A DNA stretch of 64,000 nucleotides from Patescibacteria group bacterium (GCA_016926555.1 JAFGOI010000008.1:12821-76820); one strand, 5' to 3'. Positions 5,483-55,712 are shown, counted from the first letter of the stretch. Numbers and translations: made by a program. The notes: a model not told the origin generated them from the letters alone.

Positions 5483-7975
5483 ATGTACAAAGATTTTACA
5501 CACTTTCTTAAAGATTTGACGGATCGTTTCGATGACAAAACAGCCCTTTATATAAGACGTATTTTTAAGATAGAAAGAATTACATACAGACAATTACACG
5601 AAAATGTAAAGAAACTCGGAATATTTTTTAAAAATAGCGACGTAAAAGCGGGGGATAGAGTGCTCATATGGGGCCCTAATATACCTGAATGGGTAGTTGC
5701 TCTTTTAGGCTGTTTTTACCATGGAGTAATTGTAGTACCAGTAAATGTACACACATCGCAGGCGACATTCGAAAAATACTTCGCCGAAACGGAGGCCAAG
5801 TTAATTTTCATATCAAAGTCTATCCCCAAACTACCCGAACAATACAAAGAAAAAATCTTTTATCTGGAAGATCTTTTGAACATTATTAGAGATTTAGATG
5901 AACAAGAGAGTTTTGACCAAAATGAAGATGAAGTAATAGAAATAGTATACACATCTGGCACAACGGGAGAACCGAAAGGTCTAATGATTACACATAGAAA
6001 CATTTTTTCAGAACTTGATAGCCTGTGGGATATTGCTCCCAGAGATCCGGATTATAGACTGTTATCACTACTGCCTTTAAGTCATGTTATGGAGCAGGTA
6101 ATAGGTTTAATTCTCCCACTATCTCTCGGCGGAACTATATATTATTTACCAAAAATAAACACTGTGACTATAAGCAAAGCACTTAATAAATATAAAATAT
6201 CTTATCTTGGCGTAGTTCCTCAAATGCTTAGGATTCTTTTAGATTCCATAGAAAACGAGGTTGAAAAACAGGGAATCGAAAAAGAATTTAAGAAAATGTT
6301 GGAAATATCAGAAAGACTACCTTTCTTTTTGAGGAAATACATTTTTAGAAAAGTTCACAGAAAATTTGGCGGCCACTTAAAAATGATGATGTGCGGAAGC
6401 GCCCCTTTGCCGCCAAAACTCGGTCAGACATGGGAAAATATGGGTTTTAAAGTTATTGAGGGATATGGCGCGTCTGAAACTTCCGCTGCCGCAACGTGCA
6501 ATACAGTAAATAAGCGAGTTTTTGGAACAGTAGGAAAACCCATGAGGTGTAACGATGTAAAAATAATAGAAGACGGGGAAGTGGTAATAAAAGGATCTAA
6601 TGTCACTCCAGGTTACTTTAAAAATCCTGAAAAAACTAAAGAATCTTTTACAGAAGATGGCTATTTTAAAACAGGCGATATTGGTTATTTTGATGAAAAC
6701 GGATACTTACGGCTTTCGGGAAGGACAAAATTTAGAATTGTTACACCCGCAGGCGAAAAAGTGTATCCGGAAGATCTAGAAGTCAAACTAAACTCACATG
6801 GCGATATTTGGGATAACTGTGTAATAGGTATACCTGTAGAGGGCGGGGAAGAGGTCTATGCGGTTGTAATAACAAAAGAAGGTGCTAATTTAGATAAAGT
6901 TATTGAAGAAGTAAATAATAATTTAGAAGCGCATCAGAAAATAAGACAATATAGTAAATGGGAGGAAAAGGATTTTCCAAGACTACACACATTAAAAGTT
7001 GATAGAAAAGCCGTAAAAGAGAGAATTTTAGAGAACAAACCCCAAACGCCAGAAAATATCCCGAATAAAAAAGCTGATAACGATAATGAATTGAAAGATA
7101 TCATTTCATTAGTATGTAAAGTAAACCCCGCAGAGATAGGTAAAAATAAGGTACTTACCAAGGATTTTCACCTGGATTCCTTAAGGAGAGTCGCGCTCGT
7201 TTCCTTAATAGAAGAAGAATACGGGGTCATTGTAGAAGAAAGTGATATCACGCAAGATACCACTGTAAGTGATCTAGAAAAACTCATTAAAATTGGCAAA
7301 AAACGTGTAGATTTTACGCTACCGGCAGAGTGGCCTCTTAATCCTTTTTTGTTTAAAATTAGGGATTTTCTAAGAAATTTGATAGTAACACCAATACAAA
7401 ACTATTACATTACCGATTTAAAAGTAGAGGGTATTGAAAACCTTAAAGGCTTAAAACCACCTTTAATAATAGTATTTAACCATATAGGTCACTACGACCA
7501 TGCCCTAATATATAGAATATTGCCAAAAGAACTAAGATTAAAACTCACTGGTTTGGCTGACAAAGAGCTGTATAGAACTAAATTTAAAGCATTTTTACAG
7601 TATTTCTTCGGTGGTGCTTATCCCGTGGATAAATATGGAGGCCCGGTTAGAAAGTCCCTTGAATTGGCTACAGATCTATTAGATAGGGGATTCGTTTTAT
7701 TACTATCACCAGAAGGGGAAATAAGTTATAGCGAAAAAATGCTTGAATTCAAAAAAGGCGTTGGCATGCTGGCGGTTGAAACCGGCGTTCCTGTTTTACC
7801 TATAAGAATAAAGGGTTACCACAAGATTTATAAAAAGAGACACGAATGGCCGTTTTTGCCGCCGGATGGAAGGGGTGAGGTTACTGTTGTTATTGGAAAA
7901 TCACGTACTTTTGAAAAAGGTACTACTTACGATAAATCTACTAAAATCATAAGAGATATACTCGAAGAATTGTAG
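5483..7975 (+). CDS. Tri-domain fusion: acyl-AMP/acyl-CoA ligase (AMP-binding), acyl carrier domain, and 1-acylglycerol-3-phosphate acyltransferase (PlsC-like). Aas-like lysophospholipid acylation enzyme.
   Basis: AMP-binding motif YTSGTTGEPKG in the N-terminal half. Carrier-domain motif DFHLDSL with the serine at 7178-7180. PlsC HX4D motif NHIGHYDH at 7481-7498 and a PEGE motif in the C-terminal part. Confidence 0.8.
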   Translation: MYKDFTHFLKDLTDRFDDKTALYIRRIFKIERITYRQLHENVKKLGIFFKNSDVKAGDRVLIWGPNIPEWVVALLGCFYHGVIVVPVNVHTSQATFEKYFAETEAKLIFISKSIPKLPEQYKEKIFYLEDLLNIIRDLDEQESFDQNEDEVIEIVYTSGTTGEPKGLMITHRNIFSELDSLWDIAPRDPDYRLLSLLPLSHVMEQVIGLILPLSLGGTIYYLPKINTVTISKALNKYKISYLGVVPQMLRILLDSIENEVEKQGIEKEFKKMLEISERLPFFLRKYIFRKVHRKFGGHLKMMMCGSAPLPPKLGQTWENMGFKVIEGYGASETSAAATCNTVNKRVFGTVGKPMRCNDVKIIEDGEVVIKGSNVTPGYFKNPEKTKESFTEDGYFKTGDIGYFDENGYLRLSGRTKFRIVTPAGEKVYPEDLEVKLNSHGDIWDNCVIGIPVEGGEEVYAVVITKEGANLDKVIEEVNNNLEAHQKIRQYSKWEEKDFPRLHTLKVDRKAVKERILENKPQTPENIPNKKADNDNELKDIISLVCKVNPAEIGKNKVLTKDFHLDSLRRVALVSLIEEEYGVIVEESDITQDTTVSDLEKLIKIGKKRVDFTLPAEWPLNPFLFKIRDFLRNLIVTPIQNYYITDLKVEGIENLKGLKPPLIIVFNHIGHYDHALIYRILPKELRLKLTGLADKELYRTKFKAFLQYFFGGAYPVDKYGGPVRKSLELATDLLDRGFVLLLSPEGEISYSEKMLEFKKGVGMLAVETGVPVLPIRIKGYHKIYKKRHEWPFLPPDGRGEVTVVIGKSRTFEKGTTYDKSTKIIRDILEEL

Positions 7976-8015: not shown

Positions 8016-8044
8016 TTGACTATCGCAGTAACCTATAGTATAAT
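8016..8044 (+). promoter_or_regulatory. Near-consensus sigma70-type promoter (TTGACT-17 bp-TATAAT), preceded by a small palindrome ATCAGAT-T-ATCTGAT at 8001-8015.
   Basis: Read directly: TTGACT at 8016-8021, a 17-nt spacer, then TATAAT at 8039-8044. AGGAGG lies 7 nt before the ATG at 8091. Confidence 0.5.
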
Positions 8045-8090
8045 ATGCCCGTTGACATTTAATATCCACATAACAAAACAGGAGGTAAAA

Positions 8091-8588
8091 ATGACTGCAG
8101 TAATAAGAAGAGGGCTAGTAGGTTTGGGTTTCATTTTTATAGGGGCCTTAATGGGCATGTACTTAGTGCTACAGACGCTGGGGACGTCGTCGTATATCCC
8201 GGTGTCCCAGGGACACCACGGGACACATGACGTCGGTACCGATCCAGCGGCTACGGCCAGGTTTAACCACCTGGTCAATAGCTGGAACGTAGCAAATTTC
8301 AGTAATCCTGAGGATCCAAACAAGATCAACAGGATAGTTTGCTACGTTGTGAAAGAAGGTTCCAAGATAGCCAGGTACGTGGCCTGGCACGGAACCAGAG
8401 TTTCCTCACTGGGCACCCAGTATGGAAACTTAAACTGGTGGCAGCTCGGTGAGGAGGGGTGGGAAGCCTATTCATATGACGACATGAATTTTAGTCGTCT
8501 GGGACTCCCAAAAGATCTTGATCCCCAGCGATTTTCCTGGGAGAACGTTAATTGTGACAGTATGTATCCTCCGGGGGTTTCTCCCTAG
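8091..8588 (+). CDS. Hypothetical signal-anchored or secreted protein (165 aa) with strongly atypical GC content (about 55-60%).
   Basis: Strong Shine-Dalgarno AGGAGG before the ATG at 8091. An N-terminal hydrophobic segment is followed by a soluble domain. GC sampled at 8161-8220 is 60% and at 8341-8400 is 55%, against about 33% in flanking genes. The track ORF starting at 8016 uses TTG inside the promoter and is rejected. Confidence 0.55.
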   Translation: MTAVIRRGLVGLGFIFIGALMGMYLVLQTLGTSSYIPVSQGHHGTHDVGTDPAATARFNHLVNSWNVANFSNPEDPNKINRIVCYVVKEGSKIARYVAWHGTRVSSLGTQYGNLNWWQLGEEGWEAYSYDDMNFSRLGLPKDLDPQRFSWENVNCDSMYPPGVSP

Positions 8589-8793: not shown

Positions 8794-9486
8794 TTATTTT
8801 TCTATTCCTGAAGTGCCAGCTACTGATCTAAATCTGTTAATCTGTTCAACAATAGAAGTACCCGTTTTAATTCCACTTTCATCAAGTTTTGTAGTTACAA
8901 CACTATCTACATAATCCAAAATACTTTTTAAATCCTTCTTCCTAATATACGTACTACCAACAGATCCTTCTTCGGGTAATTTGGTAAACTGAGTACTTTC
9001 AACTGCTCTCGTAGCAATGTCGGCTACTAGTTTAAACCTCTCTAAAAGAAGGTCGTCATCGCTAGACTGAAGTGCATCCTCAATACCTTCTTGAAGACTT
9101 GTTACTAAAAAATCAAGTGTTTCATCACTTACAGGACTTAAATTTATCCCATCAATTCTTTCTAATTCGGATTCCTCTTCAAAGCACGCCGTCAAGAAAT
9201 AAACTGATACATCAAATCTATCACTTGGTGTACTTAGTGATTCTTTTAATCTTTCTATAAAATCTTGAGCTTCTTGTTCTTCAGTGCTATGTTCCCCGAC
9301 TTCTCCTGCATATATGCCACTATCAGCTAATCTTAGAGCTATTGCCGCCCCCTCCGGGTCAAAAAATGCTCTTCCACCTACAGCTTCTATCACATTTTTT
9401 TGTACATCTTTCATTCTCTCTAGAAACTCGCCTTTTTGAGCTTCATCGCTATATGTAGGACCTGTAAATGTTAATCTTCTTGTCAT
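8794..9486 (-). CDS. Hypothetical acidic protein (230 aa).
   Basis: Long ORF in the expected orientation. No motif recognised. Confidence 0.45.
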   Translation of the reverse strand: MTRRLTFTGPTYSDEAQKGEFLERMKDVQKNVIEAVGGRAFFDPEGAAIALRLADSGIYAGEVGEHSTEEQEAQDFIERLKESLSTPSDRFDVSVYFLTACFEEESELERIDGINLSPVSDETLDFLVTSLQEGIEDALQSSDDDLLLERFKLVADIATRAVESTQFTKLPEEGSVGSTYIRKKDLKSILDYVDSVVTTKLDESGIKTGTSIVEQINRFRSVAGTSGIEK

Positions 9487-13709: not shown

Positions 13710-14421
13710 ACTTTTTTTTCTATTGTTACTTCCCGTAATAATTGTTCTTGTCGTGCTTTTAATTAACAACAATGAAGTAAATACTGTACCTATTGAAAGC
13801 AGTATCCAAAGACAGGCACAAATCTTAGAAGATAATGTACAAAGTGAATCTTCAGAGTCGGTTGCACCTGAAGACAATAAAGGAGAAACTAACATGCCAG
13901 AAGAAGATAATAAAACACCTGATGAAAAGGACACAAAGACTCGGGAAAAGGTTTATGTCGTGTTAAATACATCCGCGGGCCCAATAAAATTGGAACTTAA
14001 CGCAGATGAAACGCCAAAGACCGTAGAAAATTTCATTACTCTTTCAAGAAAAGGCTTTTACAACGGAACAATTTTCCACAGAGTTATTGAAGACTTTATG
14101 ATACAGGGGGGAGATCCAAAAGGAGATGGCACCGGCGGGCCGGGTTATACAATCGAGGACGAGACATTTACTGGTGACTATACAAGGGGAACACTCGCGA
14201 TGGCTAGAACATCCGCGCCAAACAGCGCGGGCAGCCAGTTTTTTATAATGCACAAAGATTATACACTGCCTAAGCAGTACGTGATATTCGGCAAGGTTAT
14301 TGAGGGTATTGAAGTTGTGGATCAAATAGCTACAGCTCCTGTTGAACGAAGTTTAAACGGCGAGATGAGCAAACCCATTAATCCCGTGACAATCGATAGT
14401 ATCGAAGTAATACAGAGCTAA
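13693..14421 (+). CDS. Peptidyl-prolyl cis-trans isomerase, cyclophilin type, with an N-terminal membrane anchor.
   Basis: FHRVIEDFMIQGGDP...GTGGPGY...FFIM cyclophilin signature. Confidence 0.85.
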   Translation: MKKNNKLFFLLLLPVIIVLVVLLINNNEVNTVPIESSIQRQAQILEDNVQSESSESVAPEDNKGETNMPEEDNKTPDEKDTKTREKVYVVLNTSAGPIKLELNADETPKTVENFITLSRKGFYNGTIFHRVIEDFMIQGGDPKGDGTGGPGYTIEDETFTGDYTRGTLAMARTSAPNSAGSQFFIMHKDYTLPKQYVIFGKVIEGIEVVDQIATAPVERSLNGEMSKPINPVTIDSIEVIQS

Positions 14422-16256
14422 TTTAGAAATCTACCAAAAGGCGTGTCAGACTCTTTTTCTTCAGGTACTGTCGGTATCGGTGTCGTACTGACATCTTCAG
14501 GCACTTCTACACTTAGAGGACTATACATTGACCAATCTATTTCCTCAATCCCATAACCTTTAAGAAGTTCATTGGCTTCGGCTTCGCTATAATATTCCTC
14601 ACTTTCCTCGGATTTATCGTCGATAACAGTCATCAATATCGGTTTTAAGGGGTCATCGCTAAGAGGATCATACCCGTATATTACCACTACTTCCTCATTT
14701 GGTACTTTCGTAAAACCTATATACTCATCCGGAGGAACTGATGAATACTCCTCAAGGTCTGCATAAGTCTCTGGCGGTGTATTGTTCTCAATCCATTTCA
14801 AAAGAATAGAGATTTTCACATTATAGTGATCCATCATAAATTGCTGATGCTTAGCCTGTGACCCCATATCTAGCAGATACCCCATACCAAAAGCCGACAA
14901 CAAGTCTTCTACCCAAGATTCAATGTCAACGTATTCTTCCGGCGCAACTATTCCGAAATTACTTCCAAAATCAGAAAACTTAATTACAAATGTCAGGTCT
15001 ACTGGCTCTGTAGTTGTACTATCTCCTAGGACCATCGGTAACACTTCGGACCCGCCCATACTTGAAGTAGATTTACTTAAAGCTTCACCATCAAGTCTTA
15101 CTATTATGCTTGTCTTTCTCATGTAATAATCTTTTTTATCCACCCACAAATTAATCGATAAACTTTCTACGACATCGACATCATCTAAATCAAAATCGTA
15201 AGTACTAAAATCAGTGCCATTTAGAGAGTCTCTTTTTTCAGATTCACTCATTTCATCGTACACTTGTTGTAGTTCTTCACCCAGTTTTCTGTAAAGATCT
15301 TTAATTTCCTCTCCCTCCATACGCACGCTCAACTTATATGTTTTAAAACCGTCTACTTCTTCAGTAGTTTGTGTAAACTTAGGTACGATTTCGTCACGCA
15401 CAAACTCTCTAAAAACCGTTATTTCCGGCTTTTCGGGCGTTTCTTCAGTTTCTTTAAACTCATCCAAGGTATCTCTTGCTTCCGATTCAAAGGGAGATAT
15501 ATCCTGCTGTACCCATACACCGAGCAGATCATCAAATGCCTCTCCGCTAGTCACACCAAAAAAAGACTTTATTAGTGTAGGTAGAGTATTAACCTTGAAA
15601 TAAAGAAAGTTATCCAATACCCGCAATTCCATATCTAACTGGTTAGTAACATTAATGTTTAATGACATTTTCATATTCTCTTCATCTCGTAAATCTATCG
15701 GTCCTTTTACGCTCATATCGAAATCTGTCATTCCTATGACATCTTGTAATCCAGCAGCTGATGTAGCAAAAGAGGCATCTAGATACACAGATTTCAGATT
15801 CTTATGTGCTTCGGCCATAGACTTAAAGATATATGACTTAGTTTTAGGCAAAAATGGCACTTTCATTACAATATCTGTTATTGCGTTTTTGACTTCTTCG
15901 TTTTTCATTGGGATTATTTCATACGCAATTAACGCCAATACCGTTCCCACAGTTAGAATAAAAAATATTACCACAAATAACATCACACCAAGAACAGATA
16001 TAGTTTTCCTGCCTTTATCATCTTTTTGGGTAGGTAATGGATCTAATGGAGATGGTATCTGGACCTTCGGCTCTTGGGAAACCTCCTGCGGGCTCTCTTT
16101 TTTTTCTACTTCGCCTTTTCCCGGAGTAGTTTGTTCGACTCGCTCTTCTTGCGGAGATGCACTGGGTACAGCACTTTTTATGTTATCATCTAACGGTTTC
16201 TGCACTGGAACTTGTTTACTATTTTGTATATTATTTTGGGCAGAAGTTTCATCCAT
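14418..16256 (-). CDS. Hypothetical single-pass membrane protein with a large acidic extracytoplasmic domain (612 aa).
   Basis: A transmembrane segment ISVLGVMLFVVIFFILTVGTVLALIAY follows a Pro/Glu-rich N-terminus. No catalytic motif recognised. Confidence 0.5.
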   Translation of the reverse strand: MDETSAQNNIQNSKQVPVQKPLDDNIKSAVPSASPQEERVEQTTPGKGEVEKKESPQEVSQEPKVQIPSPLDPLPTQKDDKGRKTISVLGVMLFVVIFFILTVGTVLALIAYEIIPMKNEEVKNAITDIVMKVPFLPKTKSYIFKSMAEAHKNLKSVYLDASFATSAAGLQDVIGMTDFDMSVKGPIDLRDEENMKMSLNINVTNQLDMELRVLDNFLYFKVNTLPTLIKSFFGVTSGEAFDDLLGVWVQQDISPFESEARDTLDEFKETEETPEKPEITVFREFVRDEIVPKFTQTTEEVDGFKTYKLSVRMEGEEIKDLYRKLGEELQQVYDEMSESEKRDSLNGTDFSTYDFDLDDVDVVESLSINLWVDKKDYYMRKTSIIVRLDGEALSKSTSSMGGSEVLPMVLGDSTTTEPVDLTFVIKFSDFGSNFGIVAPEEYVDIESWVEDLLSAFGMGYLLDMGSQAKHQQFMMDHYNVKISILLKWIENNTPPETYADLEEYSSVPPDEYIGFTKVPNEEVVVIYGYDPLSDDPLKPILMTVIDDKSEESEEYYSEAEANELLKGYGIEEIDWSMYSPLSVEVPEDVSTTPIPTVPEEKESDTPFGRFLN

Positions 16257-36882: not shown

Positions 36883-38649
36883 CTAGTGTATTTCGGCACT
36901 CTTTTCTTTTATAAACTTTCGCCAATCAGCAATAAAGGACAAAAAAGTAGAGAAGGGCACATCTATCAGCGCACTTAAAAACACACTCACAAAGTTATAT
37001 TCTTTCCATTTATTTGATAACCACATGCCAATTTTGGCCATAGGAACCGAAAAAAAGTTTAGAAACATTTCCACCAGACCGCCATCTTCTTCAATGGTTA
37101 GTTCCCGCGACTTTTGTCTTATCAACATAGCGGCAAAAACTACTATAGCAACATTCGCCGCATCAATATACAAAGATGTCCATGGCACACCGGCGAATAA
37201 AAACACTATATACACCAAATATAACGATCCTATACCTCCTATCACATAAATCAGTGTAAATATTAAAGAAAATATCGGATTTTTCCTCTTATTTAGAATT
37301 ATTTCGTACTCATCTTCCTTTTCACTGCCATAAATAATATTGTATATCTCATCGAGAAGTCTCTTAAAATTATCAGGCGATGGTAATTTAATAATAGCTA
37401 CAAGAATAAACATCATCGCCGTAGGGATCATAATATCTACAACAATCGCCCATGGTTTAAACTCGCCATATATCCATTTCGCTATCGGAAACTCGAACAC
37501 TATCAAACTTGCTCCACCAGCCACAAAAATGGAAATAGTAGAATATATCGCGGACCTGGTTAACCGTCTTTTTAACGTAGACATACGCTGTTTATACTGT
37601 TCTTTTATGTACCAACCAAACTTTGCCCTGTCACTTACTATACTTTTTAACGATGCCCTATCTTTTGATATACGCTCAAAAGCATCCCCAATTATCAAAT
37701 AAGCCGCATCGTATTTCTCACATATCTCAAAAAATTTACCTTTCCATGGGTGTTCTAAATACTCCGTAATTTCGTTCCATATTTTTTCTATATTGTCGCT
37801 AAAATATTTGAAATCTTTTTCCGTATACTTGCAGAAATTATTGTATTTATACTTAAGAAGCCTGAATGAAATTATAGGAGAATCCAGATTAAATATACTC
37901 CTATGAACCGCTACATATGTTTGGATATACTTTTCTTCATTAGTAATAGCTTTAGCCGGTTTTACCTTTATTCTAGTGTAAATAACATTTGTCATTAAGT
38001 TCATCAGCGCGTGCTCTTTATATGCTGGCTCTAATGCCTCTTCTATTTCACTCGCAGCTACTTCAGTTATCCAGTTATAGAATTCTATTTTTCTTTTTAT
38101 CGAAAGGTTCCCGGTTTTATTAGAAAGGGGATTGTTTTTTAATATGTAATCGTATTTTTTTAGAATACTAAGAATCTCAGGTACCTTTTTCTTAGATATC
38201 AATTTATGAGAGAAGTATCCGGTGCGTAACAATTCGTCCATAAAAGATTCCGCAAAATCATAATTTAGATCCCCGTTTAGAATAAGGTTCTTTCCGGTAG
38301 CTCTTGTTATGAGCCTCCTTTTTAGAATCCTTTCAATTGCGGACCGCCTGACAAGGTGCTCCTCCTTCCAATCTACAACTTGCCTGATTCTCTCGTAAAA
38401 CCGGCCAATTCTAGTAGCCAATCTATCAACTTCAATAGGCGATTCAACCTCTTTAGCATCGTATTCCAAAGCTTTCATATAATCACCAATATATTTGATG
38501 ATGAATGTATTAAGTTCTGCAGGTCCCGCATCTTTTTCTAAATCACTCTCCGTATCTCCAAATGTGATATCCGGGATATATCTATCTAAACTAGATAATC
38601 TTATTTTCTCATTGTATTGTTTTGAACCTAGAAATGTGAATAAATTCAT
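36883..38649 (-). CDS. Hypothetical protein (588 aa) with C-terminal transmembrane helices.
   Basis: Soluble N-terminal ~360 aa followed by 4-6 hydrophobic helices. Confidence 0.5.
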   Translation of the reverse strand: MNLFTFLGSKQYNEKIRLSSLDRYIPDITFGDTESDLEKDAGPAELNTFIIKYIGDYMKALEYDAKEVESPIEVDRLATRIGRFYERIRQVVDWKEEHLVRRSAIERILKRRLITRATGKNLILNGDLNYDFAESFMDELLRTGYFSHKLISKKKVPEILSILKKYDYILKNNPLSNKTGNLSIKRKIEFYNWITEVAASEIEEALEPAYKEHALMNLMTNVIYTRIKVKPAKAITNEEKYIQTYVAVHRSIFNLDSPIISFRLLKYKYNNFCKYTEKDFKYFSDNIEKIWNEITEYLEHPWKGKFFEICEKYDAAYLIIGDAFERISKDRASLKSIVSDRAKFGWYIKEQYKQRMSTLKRRLTRSAIYSTISIFVAGGASLIVFEFPIAKWIYGEFKPWAIVVDIMIPTAMMFILVAIIKLPSPDNFKRLLDEIYNIIYGSEKEDEYEIILNKRKNPIFSLIFTLIYVIGGIGSLYLVYIVFLFAGVPWTSLYIDAANVAIVVFAAMLIRQKSRELTIEEDGGLVEMFLNFFSVPMAKIGMWLSNKWKEYNFVSVFLSALIDVPFSTFLSFIADWRKFIKEKSAEIH

Positions 38650-45587: not shown

Positions 45588-47267
45588 ATGAAGAAAATAT
45601 TATTATTTACCTTCTTATCAGTTACTATACTTGCTATTTTCAATAAACACAGCTTTGGCTACGAAACTGAGAAAATTGAATTCTACGACAATTTAATTGA
45701 GATAAATAAAAACGGTACTATTAATGTGACCGAAAGAATCACTTACAACTTCGGAAGTAACGAAAAACATGGAATAACAAGAGAAATCCCCCTAATAAAA
45801 ACAAACGATGAGGGCAAGAATTTTATACTAACTATAAATAATGTCGAAGTTGAGAATTATCCAGCTGAAATTACTAAATCTAGAAAACATCTCAGTTTAA
45901 GAATAGGGGATCCGGACAAACTTATTTCAGGAACACACACATACACAATAAACTATCAGGTTGTAGGTGCTCTAACTTATTTTGAGGACCATGACGAACT
46001 ATTCTGGAATACGGTGGGAACCGAATCCGAGGTTCCTGTAACCAGAACAACAACTAAACTGATACTTCCGCATGATATTAAGGATGGAGTAGATTATATC
46101 TGCTACACCGGTGTAAAAGACTCAAAAGAAAGCAACTGTGATATTCAAAGAGTAAATGAAGCAATTTTCTTCAATAGTACAAAACCGCTCGAAGTAAATG
46201 AGACTTTAACGATAGCAGTGAAATTTCCAAAGGGATACGCTGATGTACTGCTGCCAAAAGAGGACAGATTTGATATTTTTATAGCAATAGTAGTTATTGT
46301 CCTATTAACTTTATACGTTCTATGGAACGTAGTAGTTCCTATATTGACTTTCTTAAAATGGCGCAAGGATAGGGTAAACACCAGGAACCACCAGCAAATT
46401 GTTGCAGCATGGTTTGAGCCGCCTGAGCGCGAAGACAGAAAGAAGTTTTCGCCTGCGGAAACGCTTGCTATAATAAGCAAATCAACAAATCACTCCGCTA
46501 TATCAGCAACAATAATTTATCTTGCTCAACAGGGGTTCTTTACAATATCTGTGGACGAAAAGGGCAAGGTAGCTTTCAAGAAAAAAACAGACACCTCCAG
46601 CAGTAAAAAGAACTTAACTCAGTTTGAAAAAGACATACTGAACTCGGTTACCGATAAAGACAAAGATTCTATTGATCTGGAAACACTAAAAAAATCGACT
46701 AAATTCTATAAAGTAATTGCCTCATTCCAAAATAAGGTATTAAACCACCTTTACGAAAACGGATATTTTCAAGACGATCCCAAGAAAATTCAAAATAAGT
46801 ATATGATTCTGTTTGTTTTGGCTATGATTACTATATCTTTGCTCCCAATGTTCACGTTCATACTACTCGGATACAAATCCTTCGCAAAGACCCTTAAAGG
46901 AATACAAAAATACTCGGAGGCGCTTTCTTTGAAGAATTTCCTATCGTCACAAGACGAACAGCTTAATTTTCAGTCCAAAAATCAGATGTTTTTCGAAAAG
47001 CTGCTACCATACGCAACAGCATTCGGTGTCGAAAAAGTCTGGGCTGATAGATTTTCTGATTTGAAATTCACACAATCTGATTGGTGTGAAGGTGATATCC
47101 TAAACGCTACAACATATTCCACGCTAAGCAGAACTATAGACAGCGGCGTGACATCGGCTAAAACATACGGAAGCAGCGGAAAAAGCCGCTCAGGGTTCTC
47201 AAGCGGCTTCTCATCCGGAGGTTCTTCCGGCGGGGGAGGCGGCGGAGGAAGTGTCGGAAGCTGGTAA
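45588..47267 (+). CDS. DUF2207-family membrane protein.
   Basis: Signal peptide, a central transmembrane pair, and the characteristic Gly/Ser-rich C-terminus SGFSSGFSSGGSSGGGGGGGS. Confidence 0.6.
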   Translation: MKKILLFTFLSVTILAIFNKHSFGYETEKIEFYDNLIEINKNGTINVTERITYNFGSNEKHGITREIPLIKTNDEGKNFILTINNVEVENYPAEITKSRKHLSLRIGDPDKLISGTHTYTINYQVVGALTYFEDHDELFWNTVGTESEVPVTRTTTKLILPHDIKDGVDYICYTGVKDSKESNCDIQRVNEAIFFNSTKPLEVNETLTIAVKFPKGYADVLLPKEDRFDIFIAIVVIVLLTLYVLWNVVVPILTFLKWRKDRVNTRNHQQIVAAWFEPPEREDRKKFSPAETLAIISKSTNHSAISATIIYLAQQGFFTISVDEKGKVAFKKKTDTSSSKKNLTQFEKDILNSVTDKDKDSIDLETLKKSTKFYKVIASFQNKVLNHLYENGYFQDDPKKIQNKYMILFVLAMITISLLPMFTFILLGYKSFAKTLKGIQKYSEALSLKNFLSSQDEQLNFQSKNQMFFEKLLPYATAFGVEKVWADRFSDLKFTQSDWCEGDILNATTYSTLSRTIDSGVTSAKTYGSSGKSRSGFSSGFSSGGSSGGGGGGGSVGSW

Positions 47268-47320: not shown

Positions 47321-48232
47321 ATGCAAGTAAAAGTTGAAAAACAACCTAAATCGACAGTTAAACTTACTGTTACTATACCCTTGAAGGATGTGAAATCCGC
47401 ACGCGAAGAGGTTATTGAGGAACAAGCTAAAACTGCGAATATCCAAGGCTTCAGAAGGGGAATGGCGCCAAAGGAGATTGTAGAGGAAAAATTAGGCATA
47501 GAAAAAATAAAAGGACTGGTAATAAATAAGATTTTAAAAAAAGGTTATACACAAGCACTAAAGGAAAATCATATCGCTGCCATATCAAACCCGAAGGTTG
47601 AGATTAAGGAATTTGATATAAACAAGGATTTCGAATTTACAGCTTTGGTCGCAACAAGGCCGGATGTGAAACTGAAAGACTACAAAAAAAAGCTCAGAAA
47701 AAGATACGAAAACAAAGTTGAACAGACAAAAAAAGATCTTGAAAAGATAAACAAGGAAAAACTAGCAAAGGGCGAAAAACTTGCAGAAGCAAAGGCACAA
47801 CTGAGCACAAGTGATGTTCTAGAAATATTAAACGAAGAATCCGAAGTTGAAATTCCTGATCTACTAATCGAAGAAGAAACGGATAGAATGATGTCTAAAC
47901 TAATAGATCAGACACAAAATCTTGGCATGTCAATAGAACAGTACCTAAGAGCCCAAAACAAAACAGCCGACGAACTGCGGGAAGACTATAGACAGGTAGC
48001 TGAAAAAAGCATAAAAGCCGAATTTGTGCTGGGACATCTAACTCAAGAAGAAAAAGTAGACGCAACGGATGAGGAAATCTTAGAGACTTTTAAAACCGCT
48101 GGATTACCCGACGCAAAAGAAAGACTTAATAATCCTCTAGAAAAAGCTTATGTAAAAAGTATCCTCCAAAAAAATAAATTACTTACAAAATTAATGGAGG
48201 AAGCAGAAGGAGAACAAAAAGATGAGCATTAA
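47321..48232 (+). CDS. tig: Trigger factor, short form lacking the PPIase domain.
   Basis: N-terminal ribosome-binding domain (GFRRGMAPKEIVEEKLG corresponds to the GFRxGxxP motif). The C-terminal arm domain joins directly, and the total is only 303 aa. Followed by clpP as in the conserved tig-clpP arrangement. Confidence 0.75.
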   Translation: MQVKVEKQPKSTVKLTVTIPLKDVKSAREEVIEEQAKTANIQGFRRGMAPKEIVEEKLGIEKIKGLVINKILKKGYTQALKENHIAAISNPKVEIKEFDINKDFEFTALVATRPDVKLKDYKKKLRKRYENKVEQTKKDLEKINKEKLAKGEKLAEAKAQLSTSDVLEILNEESEVEIPDLLIEEETDRMMSKLIDQTQNLGMSIEQYLRAQNKTADELREDYRQVAEKSIKAEFVLGHLTQEEKVDATDEEILETFKTAGLPDAKERLNNPLEKAYVKSILQKNKLLTKLMEEAEGEQKDEH

Positions 48233-48894: not shown

Positions 48895-48971
48895 GACCGG
48901 GTAGCTCAGTTGGTTAGAGCGCCACGTTGACATCGTGGAGGTCACAGGTTCGAGTCCTGTCTCGGTCACCA
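48895..48971 (+). tRNA. tRNA-Val (anticodon GAC).
   Basis: Acceptor GACCGGG/CTCGGTC (one G-U pair), anticodon loop TTGACAT, T-loop GGTTCGAGTCC, CCA encoded. Confidence 0.85.
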
Positions 48972-49139
48972 GAGAAAGGTGTATATCACCTTTAGGTGAT
49001 AGACAGCTCTCTAGTGAGAGAGACTGGACGAGAATAATTCGGACTGAGTGACCCCGAGTATTCGAGGGAACGAGGGAGAGGGGGTTGCGTGCTTTTGTAT
49101 GTTACGAACGAAGAGAGTTACAGACAAAAGACATGTAAC

Positions 49140-49160
49140 CGAGTCCTGTCTCGGTCACCA
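49140..49160 (+). repeat. 21-bp direct repeat CGAGTCCTGTCTCGGTCACCA, identical to the tRNA-Val 3' end (48951-48971). Att-like duplication.
   Basis: Exact copy read in the sequence 169 bp downstream of the tRNA. The intervening 168 bp is GC-rich and contains small hairpins. Confidence 0.7.
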
Positions 49161-49186
49161 TGAACAGGTAACCATAGAAAAGAAAG

Positions 49187-50686
49187 CTAACTAACCCATG
49201 CCAGTATTAAATCCTCAGTAACAGCTTCATGTTCTTGTGAATTTTCAAGATAACTTTCCCAAGCCAGCAAATGCTTTTTTAGTCTTTTACTTAAATACAA
49301 CTTAGAAGTTGCCTCATTATGCCGATATTCCTTGCCTTGGGAGTATGACTGAACAAACCTAGTTATACAATGAGTGCTCACAGCACTTAAGGTGGTACCC
49401 GATTCAGCCGGACTTACAGCTTCACTGGCATCTTCAGGATTGTCCATAGCATCCAGCTCTGCTACTTCCATTTGAATTACTTCAAAATCCTCAGTCTTCT
49501 TGATAATTTTGGGGCTTTCATAATCCTTTTTAATCAATTTGGCATTTACCCAAGCTACATATTCCCTAACATAATCGACCCGTTCCTCTTGCGGCATATC
49601 CTCTAAAACAGGTACTAATTCCGATAATATAGTAGCTTCAGCTTCACCTAATTTTTCATGGGCCACTCTTTCCTGAATTCTTGCGCGCTTGATATCTTCG
49701 TAGACTTCTTCAGCCATATCCCAAATCTCACCTGAAGAAAACGGAGATTGTTGTATATTTACTGTTCTAAACAAATCAATATAGTTATAAAGCACACGCT
49801 GTTCTTCTTCCTCGCTTAATGCCGCGCCATAAGAAGTCTCAAAGTTATCCTGTCCAAGAAGATTTCTGAGTTTTGCTACCTCAGCTCCTAAAACAGAATC
49901 AGATCGGATCAACTCCTTATACCGATCAAACGAGTCTAATCGTCTGAGAACACTTAAATCCGGTATTTCCCGATTTGCGGGTAACACAAGTACTTGTTCT
50001 AGATCGTCCGCAACACTGAGATAAATCTGTTCTTGTTCTACTGCCATTTCCGCGCTTAATACCCGATCTAATCCCACCCGCGCTAATCCTTCCGGAGACA
50101 TTTCATTTAATGCGTTTACAATTTGCCTCACGCCATAGCGCGCGCCTCGGTCTTCACTTAACTGCTTGAACGCTCTTCTGCTGAGCAAACCCAACTTTGC
50201 CTCTTTAATACCAGTTACTTCTCTCACACCCGCCTCATTAAGTCCAACTTCAGCCACATCCGGATCTCTTAATCTCTCAAGATTCCCGGATAATCCGTAT
50301 TTACGCGGTTCGTGAAAAATCCTAACTATAGTCTCTGACAGTTCGCGCTGATCAGTCTCCGCGATTTCCGAACCAGACATAATTAGAGCTTCAAATAAAT
50401 ATCCCGCGACATAAGCTTTTTCAAATGGTTCGGTCGAGGGTCTTTTTTCATCCGGATTAAACTTCTCGAAATTTACCCATGCCTGCTGAATATCCTGCTG
50501 CATTCTGTCAATAAAATCTACATGTAATCTCTCTAATGCCGTTCTTTTCTCTGTAGCACTTTCAAGTCCTCCACCACCAGCCAAAGACTCTAAAATGTCC
50601 ATATATTTATCGACATCAAGACCAGCAGTATCCTCATTCTGACGAGGTTCATCTCTGGGGAACATATCATTATAAAATCCACTCAT
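49187..50686 (-). CDS. Hypothetical acidic protein (499 aa) of atypical composition (about 44% GC).
   Basis: Long ORF, no transmembrane segment, no recognised motif. GC sampled 42-47% against a genome background of about 33%. Confidence 0.5.
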   Translation of the reverse strand: MSGFYNDMFPRDEPRQNEDTAGLDVDKYMDILESLAGGGGLESATEKRTALERLHVDFIDRMQQDIQQAWVNFEKFNPDEKRPSTEPFEKAYVAGYLFEALIMSGSEIAETDQRELSETIVRIFHEPRKYGLSGNLERLRDPDVAEVGLNEAGVREVTGIKEAKLGLLSRRAFKQLSEDRGARYGVRQIVNALNEMSPEGLARVGLDRVLSAEMAVEQEQIYLSVADDLEQVLVLPANREIPDLSVLRRLDSFDRYKELIRSDSVLGAEVAKLRNLLGQDNFETSYGAALSEEEEQRVLYNYIDLFRTVNIQQSPFSSGEIWDMAEEVYEDIKRARIQERVAHEKLGEAEATILSELVPVLEDMPQEERVDYVREYVAWVNAKLIKKDYESPKIIKKTEDFEVIQMEVAELDAMDNPEDASEAVSPAESGTTLSAVSTHCITRFVQSYSQGKEYRHNEATSKLYLSKRLKKHLLAWESYLENSQEHEAVTEDLILAWVS

Positions 50687-50744
50687 AAAAAAATTATATT
50701 ATGTCAAGTTGAAAATAACAAAAATATAATATATCATCCTCACG

Positions 50745-51269
50745 ATGACCTATAATATACCAGACTACAAAAGGGCAGTAATTGAGGCTGAAAAAATCCT
50801 AGATGAACTTGGATATGATGAGCCACCTGTATCACCACTGGAGATCGCTGAATATATTGGGCTTTCAGTTGTTCAAAATGTAAGTCTACAGTTACCAACT
50901 CCAACTTATATAGAAAACAAAAGGGAAATCGCTGCCAGGCTGGACGGACTTAATAAAACAATCTTTGTGAATACACAACAGCCCCCTAAAAACATGATAT
51001 TTGCAATAGCTCACCAAGTAGGTTACTTCGTGCTTAACAAGCAAAAAGTTGTAACAGATATCAATTCTGTTCGACCATTATTAAGAGGCAAAGAATTATT
51101 AAACCCAAACATAGATGAAATGAAAGAGGCTTACCATTTTGCGGCTAATCTGATGGTGCCATTTGATATGCTAAAAAAATATCGGAAAGAGTCAAATTCT
51201 GTGCTATCTACTATTTTTACGGTTCCCGTTACGGTAATTAATTATCAATTACAGGAGTTCCGAAAATGA
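50745..51269 (+). CDS. ImmA/IrrE-family (DUF955) metallopeptidase-like protein with a degenerate zinc motif (HQVGY instead of HExxH).
   Basis: PLEIAEYIGLSVV..., IFVNTQQPPKNMIFAIAHQVGYFVLN aligns to the ImmA HELGH region, and AANLMVPFDML aligns to the C-terminal helix. Confidence 0.45.
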   Translation: MTYNIPDYKRAVIEAEKILDELGYDEPPVSPLEIAEYIGLSVVQNVSLQLPTPTYIENKREIAARLDGLNKTIFVNTQQPPKNMIFAIAHQVGYFVLNKQKVVTDINSVRPLLRGKELLNPNIDEMKEAYHFAANLMVPFDMLKKYRKESNSVLSTIFTVPVTVINYQLQEFRK

Positions 51270-51586
51270 TCCAACACGACAACAAGGATATTAAAGAAGT
51301 AATAAGTGACATTACTATTGAATCTCAAAAAAAGCAGCTTGAGATAAGAGAAAAGGAAGAAGTTTTGGAAATGAGACGTAAATGGGCAAATTTCTTTAAG
51401 GGAATCGTGTTAGTTATACTTTTTTTTGAAATCATTATCACATTTTTAGTCGGCTCAAATCTTATGGTTTTTGAAGATGAGTGGTTCTTAAGGATTATTA
51501 TCACAGGGGGATTTGCACAAATAATGGTAATGCCTTTCACACTAACTAAATTTTTATTTAACGTTGAAAACAAAGATACAAAGTAA
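51266..51586 (+). CDS. Small membrane protein (106 aa), translationally coupled (ATGA) to the ImmA-like gene.
   Basis: Charged N-terminus and two hydrophobic helices. Confidence 0.4.
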   Translation: MIQHDNKDIKEVISDITIESQKKQLEIREKEEVLEMRRKWANFFKGIVLVILFFEIIITFLVGSNLMVFEDEWFLRIIITGGFAQIMVMPFTLTKFLFNVENKDTK

Positions 51587-51676
51587 AATAAACTAACGAC
51601 CTTCTATTGTCCTTTATCCAGCTACAATGCGGATACTCTCTTGCTATATGAAACCTAATATCATAATATTACTTAT

Positions 51677-54073
51677 ATGCCCGTTCAAGAAAGCATAAGT
51701 TCATTGGCTTCCAATTATCCTGGACCGGGTACCCCAGGATACGAACTTGTACCTCCACCTCTTCCAGTAGGAGATCCTCAAAAAGAACAACCTGGCGTGC
51801 GCAGAGAACTCCCAGCAGACGTGCAAGGAATCATTGATGCAACCGGACTTGAAGTACGTGATGCGGAGATAATGCCTACGGGCATATCCCAAACCCCCGC
51901 AGAATCGCGGGAACAACCCGTAAGTCTTCTTCATAGGATTAAACAGCAAGAACGTAAGGCCATGGAACAGGCTAAGGCCCCCACAGAGCAAGAGAGACAA
52001 GCTTTACAAAATGCACGTCTTGCAGGTGAAGCTTTTCAATTAGTAGTCGATAAATGGAGACGTGAGGGTGTTAGTACCACGTGGCTAGAAACTCTAAGAT
52101 TTGCTGATGTTCAATTCATAGTAGACCAGCTAAAAGAAATTGAGAGTCATGGAATTCATGTGAACGGAAATATTAGACAGGCTATTTCAGAAGGGGTACT
52201 CAATCTTCAAAATTCCGGTCCTTATTACTATCTGGCTGAAACACCTAATAAAGCTGCTGACCAGGCAGAACAACAAGCTCAAGACGAGAAACCAATTACG
52301 TTGGAGCAGTTCAATCAGACAGTAGCGGAACTAAAACTAAGAAGACAAGACGAATTAGCCGCTATAAACGGGGAATTGGCGGAAGATGGAGTATCAGGAT
52401 ATGACGCCATAAAAAGTCTATGCAGAAACACTTCACTGAAAGCCGGTCTAGAACTAGATCCTCTGGTTATACAATTAAGTAACAAACCCGAACTATACGG
52501 AGCGCTTAAACATTCTGTTGAAGAAACAATATGGAATGGTATGGAAAAATCTGGATTCCTTAAAATACCTGACGACAAGGATGGAATCTGGCGACGGAAA
52601 CTAGAACTGGGCGCAAAAATATCTCGGGCAAAATATACGACACTGCGTGAACAGCTTGAAGATGCTGATGTGATGGAACTCCCTCCTGGAACTCAATATT
52701 ATTTAGCTGCTGAAGCATTAGGTGAAGATATTAGGAGGATAAGAGAAACAAGTGATTTCGGGCCACTTCGACAAATTGCGAGACACGCCCTTAACTGGGT
52801 ACACGAAAGAGATGAATTCGCAGGAATTGATGCAGAACGAGGAGTATACAACGGAGAAGCAATAACTAGAATAGCCACGGCATCGAATATGCCTCATTTA
52901 TTCCCAGGTGTTGCTCAACATAGGATTGATGCACAGAAACCGCCAGGAGTATATAAAAGAGCATTCGTGGATATATACAATGATGGTAGCGCGTGGCAGA
53001 CTCAGGCAGAAAAACAAACCCGATCAACGGATCCCAGCATAGAAACAACACAGACTTGGGCAGCCCAGCTTCAGGAAATGAGACAACTAGTCGAGCTAAC
53101 AGCGGGCACTCCTGAGGAGGCTATAGAAACCTTAGCCCAAATTGAGGTCCTGGAAGCATTAGCATTTGCATTGGAACAAGTCCAAGTTGCTGACATGGAA
53201 AAAAAGATAGAGGAGAGAAGAGCAATATTTAAACAAGCATTAGGTGACGGATATGGGTGGTTTGACGCAGATTCCGCAGAGAACACAATGAACGAGGCAC
53301 TAAACAGATGCAGACCTCCTAATACACACAACCTCGAACTACTTTTTATGAACCCTGCAGACACAAATGAGCGCGGTCAATCAGAAATACTAGTTGACTC
53401 TGAAACTATTCGAAACAGAGTTGAGAGCCACTTTGGCACTTTATATGGTGGTCGAGAAAGCGCAACTTTCCGAGAACTGGGTATACATCTTGGGGATCAG
53501 TTTTTTGAAAACGTACCCCTCTTACTAAATATTCTAATTGAGGGAGGTATGTCCCCCACACAATCAGAGGAACTAGTAACTTATATGTTAATACAACACT
53601 TTGAGGCTGAAGCTCAAAGCCATAGAATGGGCCAGGAGCAAATGCAAAGTGCAACAATAGCAGCAGATTTAGGAAAAGTCAGAGGTTTATTCGATGAAAT
53701 TCAAAAAGAAGCTGAAGAGGGAACTCCGCCTGAACAAATACGTGCCGGTAGAGGAATGCACACTGTTCTAGACCTATCCGAGGAACGATGGACACAAGCT
53801 AAAGAAACCATTGCTCTACTTATTACTAAAGCGGAAGCTGCTAATACGAGACGTTGTGAACAGGCATTGGAACAGATGGAAGAGGCACGTGGGCAAATAG
53901 CTAGGGAATCAGAAACCCCGCAAACTACTGAAGCGGACACAGTTAACACTAGATTATCCGCCGTCCTAGAAAGAATTTCACCTGAGCGACTAAATTATGC
54001 TTTAGGACCAGCAGGATGGCTAGCTGCGCGAGAAGAGGAAAAGATAGCAAAAGAACAAAATGAGCTAACCTAA
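51677..54073 (+). CDS. Large hypothetical soluble acidic protein (798 aa) of atypical composition (about 47% GC).
   Basis: Long ORF without transmembrane segments or recognisable catalytic motifs. Glu/Gln/Ala-rich. Confidence 0.55.
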   Translation: MPVQESISSLASNYPGPGTPGYELVPPPLPVGDPQKEQPGVRRELPADVQGIIDATGLEVRDAEIMPTGISQTPAESREQPVSLLHRIKQQERKAMEQAKAPTEQERQALQNARLAGEAFQLVVDKWRREGVSTTWLETLRFADVQFIVDQLKEIESHGIHVNGNIRQAISEGVLNLQNSGPYYYLAETPNKAADQAEQQAQDEKPITLEQFNQTVAELKLRRQDELAAINGELAEDGVSGYDAIKSLCRNTSLKAGLELDPLVIQLSNKPELYGALKHSVEETIWNGMEKSGFLKIPDDKDGIWRRKLELGAKISRAKYTTLREQLEDADVMELPPGTQYYLAAEALGEDIRRIRETSDFGPLRQIARHALNWVHERDEFAGIDAERGVYNGEAITRIATASNMPHLFPGVAQHRIDAQKPPGVYKRAFVDIYNDGSAWQTQAEKQTRSTDPSIETTQTWAAQLQEMRQLVELTAGTPEEAIETLAQIEVLEALAFALEQVQVADMEKKIEERRAIFKQALGDGYGWFDADSAENTMNEALNRCRPPNTHNLELLFMNPADTNERGQSEILVDSETIRNRVESHFGTLYGGRESATFRELGIHLGDQFFENVPLLLNILIEGGMSPTQSEELVTYMLIQHFEAEAQSHRMGQEQMQSATIAADLGKVRGLFDEIQKEAEEGTPPEQIRAGRGMHTVLDLSEERWTQAKETIALLITKAEAANTRRCEQALEQMEEARGQIARESETPQTTEADTVNTRLSAVLERISPERLNYALGPAGWLAAREEEKIAKEQNELT

Positions 54074-54121
54074 CCCAAAATCTACTGCACCATAATCTCA
54101 TTCAAATGTTATTATGTTTAT

Positions 54122-55042
54122 GTGAAATCTGCCTCTTTTTATATTAAAACTGTATGTGTATCTTTATCGCTTTTTATAGAATCCTATATTCTTCTTCAGC
54201 TCATTTATGACTTGGTTTCATTTCACAACAATATAGAATTTGCTCTTGATATAGCAATAAAAGTTATACTCGTTATGCTACTTCTTATCTATACCTTTTC
54301 ACTAAGTATTGGCGCGTGGTATAAGTGGGAGCAATATATAATGGTGATAATTCCTATAATATTAGCCATATTTATTAAACTATTTATTTCAAACTCCAAA
54401 TATATACTTTCAACGTGCTGTATTGCTACTTTGCTGCTTGCATATGAAATTAGAAAATCCACTAGACTCAAAAACCTTTTAATAAAAGTCGATCCTAAAA
54501 TTATTATGAGATTTTCAGCAAAGAGTCTTTTGCTTCTTTTCTGTATTCTTGGCGGAATCATCAGTCTTATTGATCCAGATATGAAAAAAAGCTTTGATTT
54601 AGGAGAAAGAGTAGCAGAACTGTCGGGAAAACATGTCGAAAAATATTTAGACAAACAAATCTCGGAGCAAATACTGGAACAGGACTACGATGTAATAGAA
54701 GATGGCGGAACTGTTGTTTCTGAAGGCTATGAAATACCGGCGAAAGCCGAAATTTATGATGGATTTTATATTGACCTCCGTGAACTTTACGAAGATAAAG
54801 AACCTACTCAAGAACAACTAAAGTCTTTCATAAGCAGAAAAGTAAACGAAGCGACAGAACAGTATAAAGAGTTCTTTCAACCAATACTATCCTTGGTAAC
54901 ATTTAGTGTATTGCAAATATACGCCCTGATAGCTTTTTTCCTGTATGGACTAACGATAGATTTAATATTCTGGACTGCAAAAAGACTAAAATTAGTACAT
55001 ATACATACGGAAAATGTTGAGAAAGAAAATCTTATATTTTAA
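54122..55042 (+). CDS. Hypothetical polytopic membrane protein (native low-GC composition).
   Basis: ORF with several transmembrane helices. The start is uncertain. Confidence 0.4.
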   Translation: MKSASFYIKTVCVSLSLFIESYILLQLIYDLVSFHNNIEFALDIAIKVILVMLLLIYTFSLSIGAWYKWEQYIMVIIPIILAIFIKLFISNSKYILSTCCIATLLLAYEIRKSTRLKNLLIKVDPKIIMRFSAKSLLLLFCILGGIISLIDPDMKKSFDLGERVAELSGKHVEKYLDKQISEQILEQDYDVIEDGGTVVSEGYEIPAKAEIYDGFYIDLRELYEDKEPTQEQLKSFISRKVNEATEQYKEFFQPILSLVTFSVLQIYALIAFFLYGLTIDLIFWTAKRLKLVHIHTENVEKENLIF

Positions 55043-55712
55043 GTTCTGATACTTTCACTGCTTTTTCTAAAGTATATTCTCCAATTCGCGTTCGCACTAA
55101 ATCTACCAAAACTCCTCTTGTACCTAATTCATTGCCTAAATCAGCTGCTAACTGCCTGATGTAGCTTCCTGACGAGCACACAACTCTGCACTTTAAAACT
55201 GGCAAAGTTTTATTTCCTTTATTAGTCTCAAATTCCTTACTATAAACATCTAGAACATCAGACTCATATATATTTACTGTCTTTTTTTCCGGTTTGTATT
55301 CTCCCAATAGGTTTTTTCTCGCTTTTTTGTACAACGGCTTTCCTTTTACCTTTTTCGCTGAAAATTTGGGGATTTCCTGCTCAATTTCACCTTCATATTT
55401 ACTGAGCACTGCCGGAATTTCATTTCGTAACACTTCTTCCGTTACAAGGTTTTCACTCAGCACGGGTGTTTCTTCTAAATCAAGTGTTTCTGTAGAGGCG
55501 CCAAAAGCTATTTCTGCAACGTACTCCTTCTTCTGGTTCATTATTTCGCTTTGCTTCTTTGTATCTTTCTCCGTGAGAACTATAAGAACACCCTCCGCAA
55601 GCGGGTCAAGTGTTCCGGCGTGACCAGCTTTTTTTACTTTTAATAAGCTTTTAATTTTGGCGACAACGTCAAAACTCGTCCAGTTTTTTTGTTTGTAGAT
55701 ATTTAGAATCAT
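55032..55712 (-). CDS. truB: tRNA pseudouridine(55) synthase.
   Basis: KKAGHAGTLDPLAEGVLIV catalytic Asp motif. Confidence 0.85.
   Translation of the reverse strand: MILNIYKQKNWTSFDVVAKIKSLLKVKKAGHAGTLDPLAEGVLIVLTEKDTKKQSEIMNQKKEYVAEIAFGASTETLDLEETPVLSENLVTEEVLRNEIPAVLSKYEGEIEQEIPKFSAKKVKGKPLYKKARKNLLGEYKPEKKTVNIYESDVLDVYSKEFETNKGNKTLPVLKCRVVCSSGSYIRQLAADLGNELGTRGVLVDLVRTRIGEYTLEKAVKVSELKI

Follow-up and report, generated by a model that had tools for sequence, protein, structure and literature searches.

Beside a tRNA-Val gene in a 64,000-nt stretch of Patescibacteria DNA (GCA_016926555.1 JAFGOI010000008.1:12821-76820; hereafter the window), two genes for large acidic proteins flank a two-gene operon (segment 49187-54073) that is homologous to a toxin–antitoxin (TA) cassette of phages, RosmerTA. 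Our preferred reading, to which we give a probability of about 0.55, is that this is an old, domesticated accessory segment at a scarred tRNA-Val, consisting of a Rosmer-like cassette with a pseudo-peptidase antitoxin and of two long-resident flanking proteins. An earlier note on this DNA had described the four open reading frames (ORFs) and the adjacent tRNA-Val accurately, had placed the ImmA-like pair among mobile-element and conflict modules, and had called the whole a compositionally foreign island and a possible undescribed defence module. Homology of the pair to a cassette found in phages, among whose members is a validated RosmerTA pair, upholds the placement, but the core is a variant of an already described family, and the third-position GC content (GC3), synonymous codon usage and promoter type of the segment are all native.

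The RosmerTA family was reportedly named in Millman et al. 2022. Within it, the proteins gp32 (YP_009301393.1) and gp33 (YP_009301394.1) of Gordonia phage Kita are the validated antitoxin–toxin pair RmrA(D25)/RmrT(D5), which operates as a two-gene system and guards Escherichia coli from phages Bas54 and Bas59; the Kita toxin's C-terminal part is membrane-localised, and the toxin makes E. coli cells permeable as well as depolarising them (Ernits et al. 2023, PMC10440598). In the window, the second gene of the operon encodes a 106-aa protein with two hydrophobic transmembrane (TM) helices, in agreement with the small two-helix membrane protein of the earlier note. A hidden Markov model (HMM) built from the phage partners only scored this protein at 43 bits (E 6.5e-13) and matched no other ORF of the window, BLASTP matched it to CST123 of Clostridium phage c-st (E 1e-5), and hhalign aligned it with the Kita gp33 group over 84 collinear columns (97.3% probability, E 2.6e-11). 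It also shares a homology cluster with Kita gp33 through intermediates; when aligned directly to Kita gp33 it gives no significant score, and the link holds at profile level and via intermediates only. The invariant C-terminal LF is kept and Gln85 of the second TM helix is also found in the phage members L021 and L034; judged by its sequence, the toxin looks intact.

Gene order points the same way. In phages Polly, Kita and c-st a small gene, annotated in Polly as a membrane protein, comes after a short M78 gene with an overlap of 4 nt, and in a survey of IMG/VR contigs that covered 57 loci encoding M78 relatives, about 17 of 30 short-form M78 genes were coupled to, or closely followed by, a downstream gene for a two-TM protein of 119-178 aa. 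The closest relative of the window toxin is that of phage contig L025, in which the cassette (5968-6875, plus strand) is an opposite-strand moron between the endolysin and late-activator genes, beside the terminase genes; in the phage loci L019 and L078 the cassettes lie at 2929-3794 and 2402-3294, respectively. Those of Polly and Kita sit between the tail genes and the region of the helix-turn-helix (HTH) and integrase genes. At the level of sequence comparison both cassette genes are homologous to the phage cassette, and since profile, cluster and gene-order matches all lead to the Kita group, we take the window operon to be a copy of a phage-borne Rosmer-type cassette.

The first gene of the operon encodes a 174-aa protein that the earlier note had rightly recognised as ImmA/IrrE-like (DUF955): it scores 33.2 bits with Pfam Peptidase_M78 (PF06114), whose gathering cutoff is 22. 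Matches in PHROGs were to phrog_1914 and phrog_87 (metallo-protease, E 5.6e-7), and those in PADLOC were to capP, the best (27.9 bits, E 3.7e-7), and to RmrA (PDLC03949, 14.2 bits, E 0.0036). Searches of phage genomes with tblastn recovered Kita gp32 and Polly gp29 at 26% identity over 83% of the query, within a set of weak full-length matches (26-28% identity) to genes labelled ‘metalloprotease’ in Clostridium phage c-st and in several Gordonia phages, Polly and Kita among them. The earlier note had overlooked that the HExxH motif of the zinc-peptidase site is replaced by HQVGY in this protein, which stands alone in this respect, HExxH being present in each of the 59 phage homologues examined. 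Relative to a reference alignment of 16 phage RmrA-like proteins that have a two-TM partner, the catalytic Glu at position 91 is Gln, the second zinc-binding His at position 94 is Tyr, the in-register third ligand (Glu) at position 126 is Met and the invariant Arg at position 168 is Gln; all four positions are conserved in 16 of the 16 cassette-linked phage proteins, and HExxH is kept in all 57 IMG/VR relatives, though the search pattern permitted Q there. The hydrophobic core of the fold is kept (F86, A89, H90, F132, A133 and P139), and the four substitutions take in all remaining invariant catalytic positions. Residue by residue, the 174-aa protein is most likely a pseudo-peptidase, and because the zinc-peptidase feature was tested and found to be absent, we class the cassette as Rosmer-like, a variant instead of an ordinary member of the family.

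In the RosmerTA scheme, a small two-TM RmrT of the D5 type permeabilises and depolarises the membrane, the M78-fold RmrA encoded just upstream of it restrains it, and phage infection frees the toxin, leading to abortion of the infection. Transferred to the window, this scheme would imply an active toxin and a role in defence, with an M78 partner that, lacking the catalytic Glu, one zinc His and the third ligand, would not act as a zinc protease. Either the toxin would then be neutralised by binding alone, if the pair still functions, or the cassette is a domesticated or decaying remnant. We found no literature on the need for RmrA protease activity.

Expression signals of the segment resemble those of the rest of the window, in which Shine-Dalgarno sites are rare (7 of 56 genes) and −10-like hexamers end 6-9 nt upstream of the start codon in 16 of 55 genes, against a background of about 1 per position; boxes this close to the starts argue for widespread leaderless mRNAs (examples are genes 8794-9486, 14418-16256, 45588-47267 and 55032-55712). 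The hexamers often have the extended form TGnTAnAAT. The −10 boxes of the 499-aa gene and the rmrA-like gene lie 6 and 7 nt from the start, both matching the native leaderless type, and the promoter scan has these two genes driven divergently from promoter-like sites within 58 bp. The 174-aa and 106-aa genes are co-oriented and overlap by 4 nt (ATGA, 51266-51269), which supports the translational coupling previously proposed, and the 106-aa gene is among the few with a strong Shine-Dalgarno site (AGGAG, 8 nt upstream), as a translationally coupled second cistron would need. The 798-aa gene begins 90 bp after the toxin gene, and the promoter and terminator scan found no terminator-like site between them.

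The claim of a foreign island had relied on GC contents of 44-48% against about 33% in native genes; the measured values are 41.5% for the 499-aa gene and 44.1% for the 798-aa gene, against a mean of 37.0% (s.d. 3.3) for window genes. The excess is confined to the first two codon positions (GC1 0.56, GC2 0.35 and GC3 0.334 for the 499-aa gene; 0.61, 0.41 and 0.304 for the 798-aa gene; window mean GC3 0.340) and therefore reflects amino-acid composition rather than a foreign nucleotide signature. Synonymous codon choice, scored by a leave-one-out likelihood test, gave z values of −0.60, −0.72, −0.43 and −1.27 for the four genes (window s.d. 1.47); their silent sites are native. What deviates is the make-up of the two large proteins, which combine much A, E, Q and R with little K, I, F, N and Y, show the lowest K/(K+R) ratios in the window (0.37 for the 798-aa and 0.41 for the 499-aa protein, against 0.68 ± 0.11; z about −2.8 and −2.5), and are each other’s nearest compositional neighbours (cosine 0.70, rank 12 of 1540 gene pairs); the 798-aa protein has the most deviant amino-acid composition among window genes of more than 500 codons. 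The ImmA-like, 106-aa and 306-aa genes are compositionally native. A low content of F, Y, M, I, N and K together with a high content of G, A, R and P and an excess of R over K is the make-up that a higher-GC proteome yields, and silent sites are the fastest to ameliorate after transfer. The composition of the large proteins is consistent with an ancient, ameliorated transfer and just as consistent with functional constraint on highly charged helical proteins, but not with the recent arrival of a foreign island. Elsewhere in the window, ORF 8016-8588 (plus strand) is the sole true silent-site outlier (GC 0.478, GC3 0.539, synonymous z −4.74, no Pfam match), and its neighbour 8794-9486 (minus strand) encodes an acidic protein (GC3 0.199, K/(K+R) 0.48, no Pfam match); this pair is a better candidate for recent acquisition than the segment that had been flagged.

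A second feature that had escaped the earlier note connects the locus with integration. The last 21 nt of tRNA-Val, CGAGTCCTGTCTCGGTCACCA, form an att-like core that recurs exactly a short distance downstream (Table 1), a match seen in 0 of 100 shuffles. Duplication of a tRNA 3′ end is a classical signature of site-specific integration at a tRNA, and at this tRNA-Val integration has taken place on one or more occasions. Between the core copies, the 168-nt spacer is closed in all six frames and, together with copy 2 (48972-49165), folds to a minimum free energy of −70.4 kcal/mol, against −48.9 in shuffled sequences (z = −5.1). On its minus strand, copy 2 forms a terminator-like hairpin (49158-49135) 29 nt past the stop of the 499-aa gene. 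The spacer is probably the residue of a deleted integrated element, and it could be a small RNA or a hairpin stack that such an element left behind; it reached the gathering score of no Rfam family, has no second copy in the window and matched no phage or plasmid, so that a known RNA, a repeat element and a phage or plasmid fragment were each rejected as its identity. The 21-mer itself has 0 exact matches in viral or metagenome contigs. On our preferred reading, the segment from tRNA-Val to truB is most likely what remains of one or several elements that had inserted at tRNA-Val, and the genes flanking the cassette may have arrived in such an element.

Of the two large proteins, the 499-aa one has a pI of 4.65 and a net charge of −38, and the 798-aa one a pI of 4.81 and a net charge of −46; both are soluble, have no TM segment and, in line with their first description as motif-less and rich in Glu, Ala and Gln, yielded no internal repeats and no catalytic or other motifs. 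Their single-sequence AlphaFold2 models, though unusable, suggest that both are all-helical. Each found only itself in a word-indexed search of 5.8 billion clusters, and the 798-aa protein also in an exhaustive HMMER scan of 1.84 billion representatives. Neither has a match in Pfam, PHROGs, PADLOC, NCBIfam or IMG/VR, in the PDB (phmmer, E up to 10) or, by tblastn, among phages and plasmids. That the two might be paralogues was rejected (BLASTP E 0.32).

The segment lies between trigger factor and ClpP on the left and, on the right, a 306-aa membrane orphan followed by truB, thrS, infC, rplT and pheST, with intergenic gaps of 215, 58, 90 and 48 bp. Scans with Pfam, PHROGs, PADLOC and NCBIfam revealed no integrase, XRE, HTH, structural phage or mobility gene among the ORFs of 49187-55042, which agrees with the earlier note. 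The 306-aa gene is native in composition (GC 0.320, K/(K+R) 0.77) and runs 11 nt into the 3′ end of the convergent truB; it may mark the right boundary of the segment. The same four databases gave its product no match above curated cut-offs (in Pfam sub-threshold matches only), and metagenome contigs gave no relative. The metagenome-assembled genome is listed at NCBI as Patescibacteria group bacterium, with locus tags JXA34_02775 to 02790 in this region. An independent Logan assembly (SRR13394437) reproduces the 3′ half of the tRNA, the spacer, all the genes and thrS at 100% identity, so the arrangement is not a binning chimera. Logan contigs L079 and L018 begin or end within tRNA genes (tRNA-Leu, window position 44707; the anticodon loop of tRNA-Val, 48925-48930). 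The break in tRNA-Val was rejected as a sign of excision, as the same contig also starts inside tRNA-Leu; such breaks are probably a generic artefact of tRNA k-mers common to several organisms of the metagenome.

Table 1. Coordinates of the features between tRNA-Val and truB, counted from the first letter of the window.
Feature	Position	Strand	Evidence
tRNA-Val (anticodon GAC)	48895-48971	+	ARAGORN; Rfam tRNA 71.5 bits
att-like core copy 1, T-loop to CCA end of tRNA-Val	48951-48971	+	exact 21-nt repeat
168-nt non-coding structured spacer between core copies	48972-49139	+	folding, six-frame check
att-like core copy 2	49140-49160	+	exact 21-nt repeat
499-aa acidic, predicted all-helical singleton protein	49187-50686	-	ORF
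Divergent control region, 58 bp, with back-to-back promoter-like sites	50687-50744	.	promoter scan, -10 box positions
RmrA-like M78-fold protein, 174 aa, putative antitoxin	50745-51269	+	Pfam PF06114, PHROGs, PADLOC, tblastn
RmrT(D5)-like 106-aa two-TM protein, putative membrane-depolarising toxin	51266-51586	+	phage-partner HMM, BLASTP, hhalign
798-aa acidic, predicted all-helical singleton protein, Pro/Gly-rich N-terminus	51677-54073	+	ORF
306-aa multi-TM orphan protein (255 aa from ATG at 54275)	54122-55042	+	ORF

Several observations weigh against an old, domesticated segment with a Rosmer-like cassette. The core copies bracket only 168 nt, and because all four genes lie outside them, the repeats do not delimit the proposed island; no third copy was found near the distal end within 7 mismatches. 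The earlier suggestion of a decayed integrative element thus survives in part, the scar in tRNA-Val making a link with a past element plausible, while its reach over the four genes is not borne out by the repeats. Genes that had never been foreign would account for the native codon usage and promoters just as well. The RmrA-like match to single phage proteins is weak (tblastn E 0.4; PADLOC RmrA 14 bits), the assignment, made from sequence, resting mainly on profile matches and conserved gene order; composition can inflate the profile scores of TM proteins; and the lost active site may be a sign of a cassette in decay that has ceased to function. No observation links the 499-aa and 798-aa proteins to any function, and the AlphaFold check proposed for them, run on single sequences with AlphaFold2, returned predicted local distance difference test (pLDDT) scores of 40.6 (798 aa) and 36.2 (499 aa), both models being unusable.

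Several of these points also favour an explanation that we consider possible but doubtful, namely that the two large proteins and the 306-aa protein are ordinary lineage-specific genes, that the cassette hopped in alone as a selfish moron or TA unit, as which it acts autonomously in phages, and that the 189-bp scar at the tRNA records an unrelated event of integration and deletion. Codon usage, GC3 and leaderless promoters are native and the repeats do not enclose the genes. Orphan status is itself to be expected here: of the window genes scanned, about 40% fall in no Pfam family, and 14418-16256 (minus strand, 612 aa, acidic) and 36883-38649 (minus strand, 588 aa), which are Pfam-less, singletons at 90% identity and native in composition, indicate that large unannotatable proteins are common in this genome. 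Ten control proteins, among them ClpP, ThrRS, PheS, TruB and thioredoxin reductase, were likewise all singletons at 90% identity in a set of about 15 billion sequences, the closest ThrRS among GTDB species genomes was 50% identical and came from other phyla, and exact ClpP and TruB occur only in sample SRR13394437; with the organism sampled once, fast-evolving lineage-specific genes are expected to look like orphans. What this explanation leaves aside is that the common compositional deviation of the two large proteins, with R exceeding K and the lowest K/(K+R) of the window, is extreme by the standard of this window and is not seen in other Pfam-less genes such as 14418-16256, and that they stand beside an integration-scarred tRNA, one on each side of a phage cassette.

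We regard it as improbable that the four genes make up one undescribed defence or effector system in which the large proteins serve as sensors, decoys or effectors under the ImmA-like/TM pair. The sole links between the large proteins and the cassette, the divergent promoter region common to the 499-aa gene and the operon and the 90-bp gap without a terminator-like site before the 798-aa gene, are weak; the likeness of the two proteins in composition and the small number of defence systems known in Patescibacteria (10.1101/2025.02.28.640651) can be added to them. Against this, RosmerTA works with two genes (PMC10440598), no large acidic protein lies beside the cassette in the Polly, Kita, c-st, L025 or L034 neighbourhoods, and phmmer matched the large proteins to none of the 3622 ORFs of all fetched loci; no second instance exists that would show co-occurrence. 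Because they are absent beside the cassette in every phage locus examined, there is no evidence that the large proteins belong to the TA module. More improbable still is a Patescibacteria-specific four-gene conflict module built from them and the pseudo-peptidase RmrA/RmrT pair, for example with decoys, sensors or effectors gated by the membrane toxin and an M78 partner that is purely binding or regulatory; such a module, if real, would have a defence architecture for which no phylum offers a described example. Least probable of all, and very unlikely in our view, is a classical ImmA/IrrE or CapP-type anti-repressor protease that would cleave an XRE repressor to switch on an element or defence operon: the Peptidase_M78 match and the best PADLOC profile, capP, are in its favour, but no HTH/XRE partner, integrase or genes of a cyclic-oligonucleotide-based antiphage signalling system (CBASS) lie in or beside the locus, whose intergenic gaps leave too little room for one to be overlooked; the protein has lost the catalytic Glu together with two metal ligands, and its conserved partner is no repressor but a membrane protein. 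We therefore retain the old, domesticated segment at tRNA-Val, whose core would be a translationally coupled two-gene cassette of phage origin and whose large proteins, outside the conserved cassette, we prefer to see as cargo of long residence or as cytoplasmic proteins specific to the lineage.

On that reading, a cassette whose typical carriers are temperate phages of Actinobacteria and Firmicutes would have reached a Patescibacteria chromosome and become fully domesticated there, down to native codons and leaderless promoters, and the locus would be one of the few defence-type modules seen in Patescibacteria. A pseudo-peptidase antitoxin would amount to a natural experiment on whether RmrA neutralises its toxin by proteolysis or just by binding. 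The two large singletons add to the ‘dark matter’ of the candidate phyla radiation (CPR) and are not interpretable on present evidence.

Two further genes of the window are unusual in domain content. A 959-aa protein (2148-5027, minus strand) combines CoA_binding, Succ_CoA_lig and ATP-grasp_5 domains, as in an ADP-forming acetyl-CoA synthetase, with FAD_binding_6 and NAD_binding_1 in an unusual fusion, and its gene adjoins that of pyruvate:ferredoxin oxidoreductase (415-2151, minus strand). The trigger factor (47321-48232, plus strand) has only 303 aa, with Trigger_N and Trigger_C and no PPIase domain between them.

Among known arrangements, a tRNA-linked island or prophage remnant shares with this locus the position directly 3′ of a tRNA, the exact duplication of the tRNA 3′ end and a phage-type accessory cassette; unlike such an island, the locus has repeats that flank 168 bp instead of genes, no integrase and a native silent-site composition. 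The anti-repressor proteases of ImmA/ImmR (ICEBs1 and phage phi105) and IrrE/DdrO likewise have an M78 (COG2856) fold and are associated with mobile elements, whereas the window locus has no XRE repressor or integrase, has lost the catalytic residues and pairs the M78 protein with a membrane protein. CapP/CapH of CBASS is represented by the best PADLOC profile of the 174-aa protein (capP, E 3.7e-7), but the CapH HTH partner and CBASS genes are absent here and the active site has degenerated. For want of an HTH partner, ImmA/ImmR and CapP/CapH were both rejected as readings. Differences from RosmerTA are that the window antitoxin has neither the HExxH zinc site nor the in-register third ligand and scores just 14 bits with the PADLOC RmrA model, that the N-terminal cytoplasmic part of the toxin is shorter (106 aa in total, compared with 119-178 aa), and that the pair, a putative toxin and antitoxin, lies on a Patescibacteria chromosome, whereas the Kita pair is carried by a phage. 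It is nevertheless RosmerTA that the operon resembles in layout and in parts: a co-oriented two-gene operon with the antitoxin before the toxin and a 4-nt overlap, an antitoxin of about 170 aa with a short M78 fold (ImmA/IrrE, COG2856) and no HTH domain, a small toxin whose C-terminal two-TM hairpin has a conserved LF at its end, and a relationship of both genes at the profile level.

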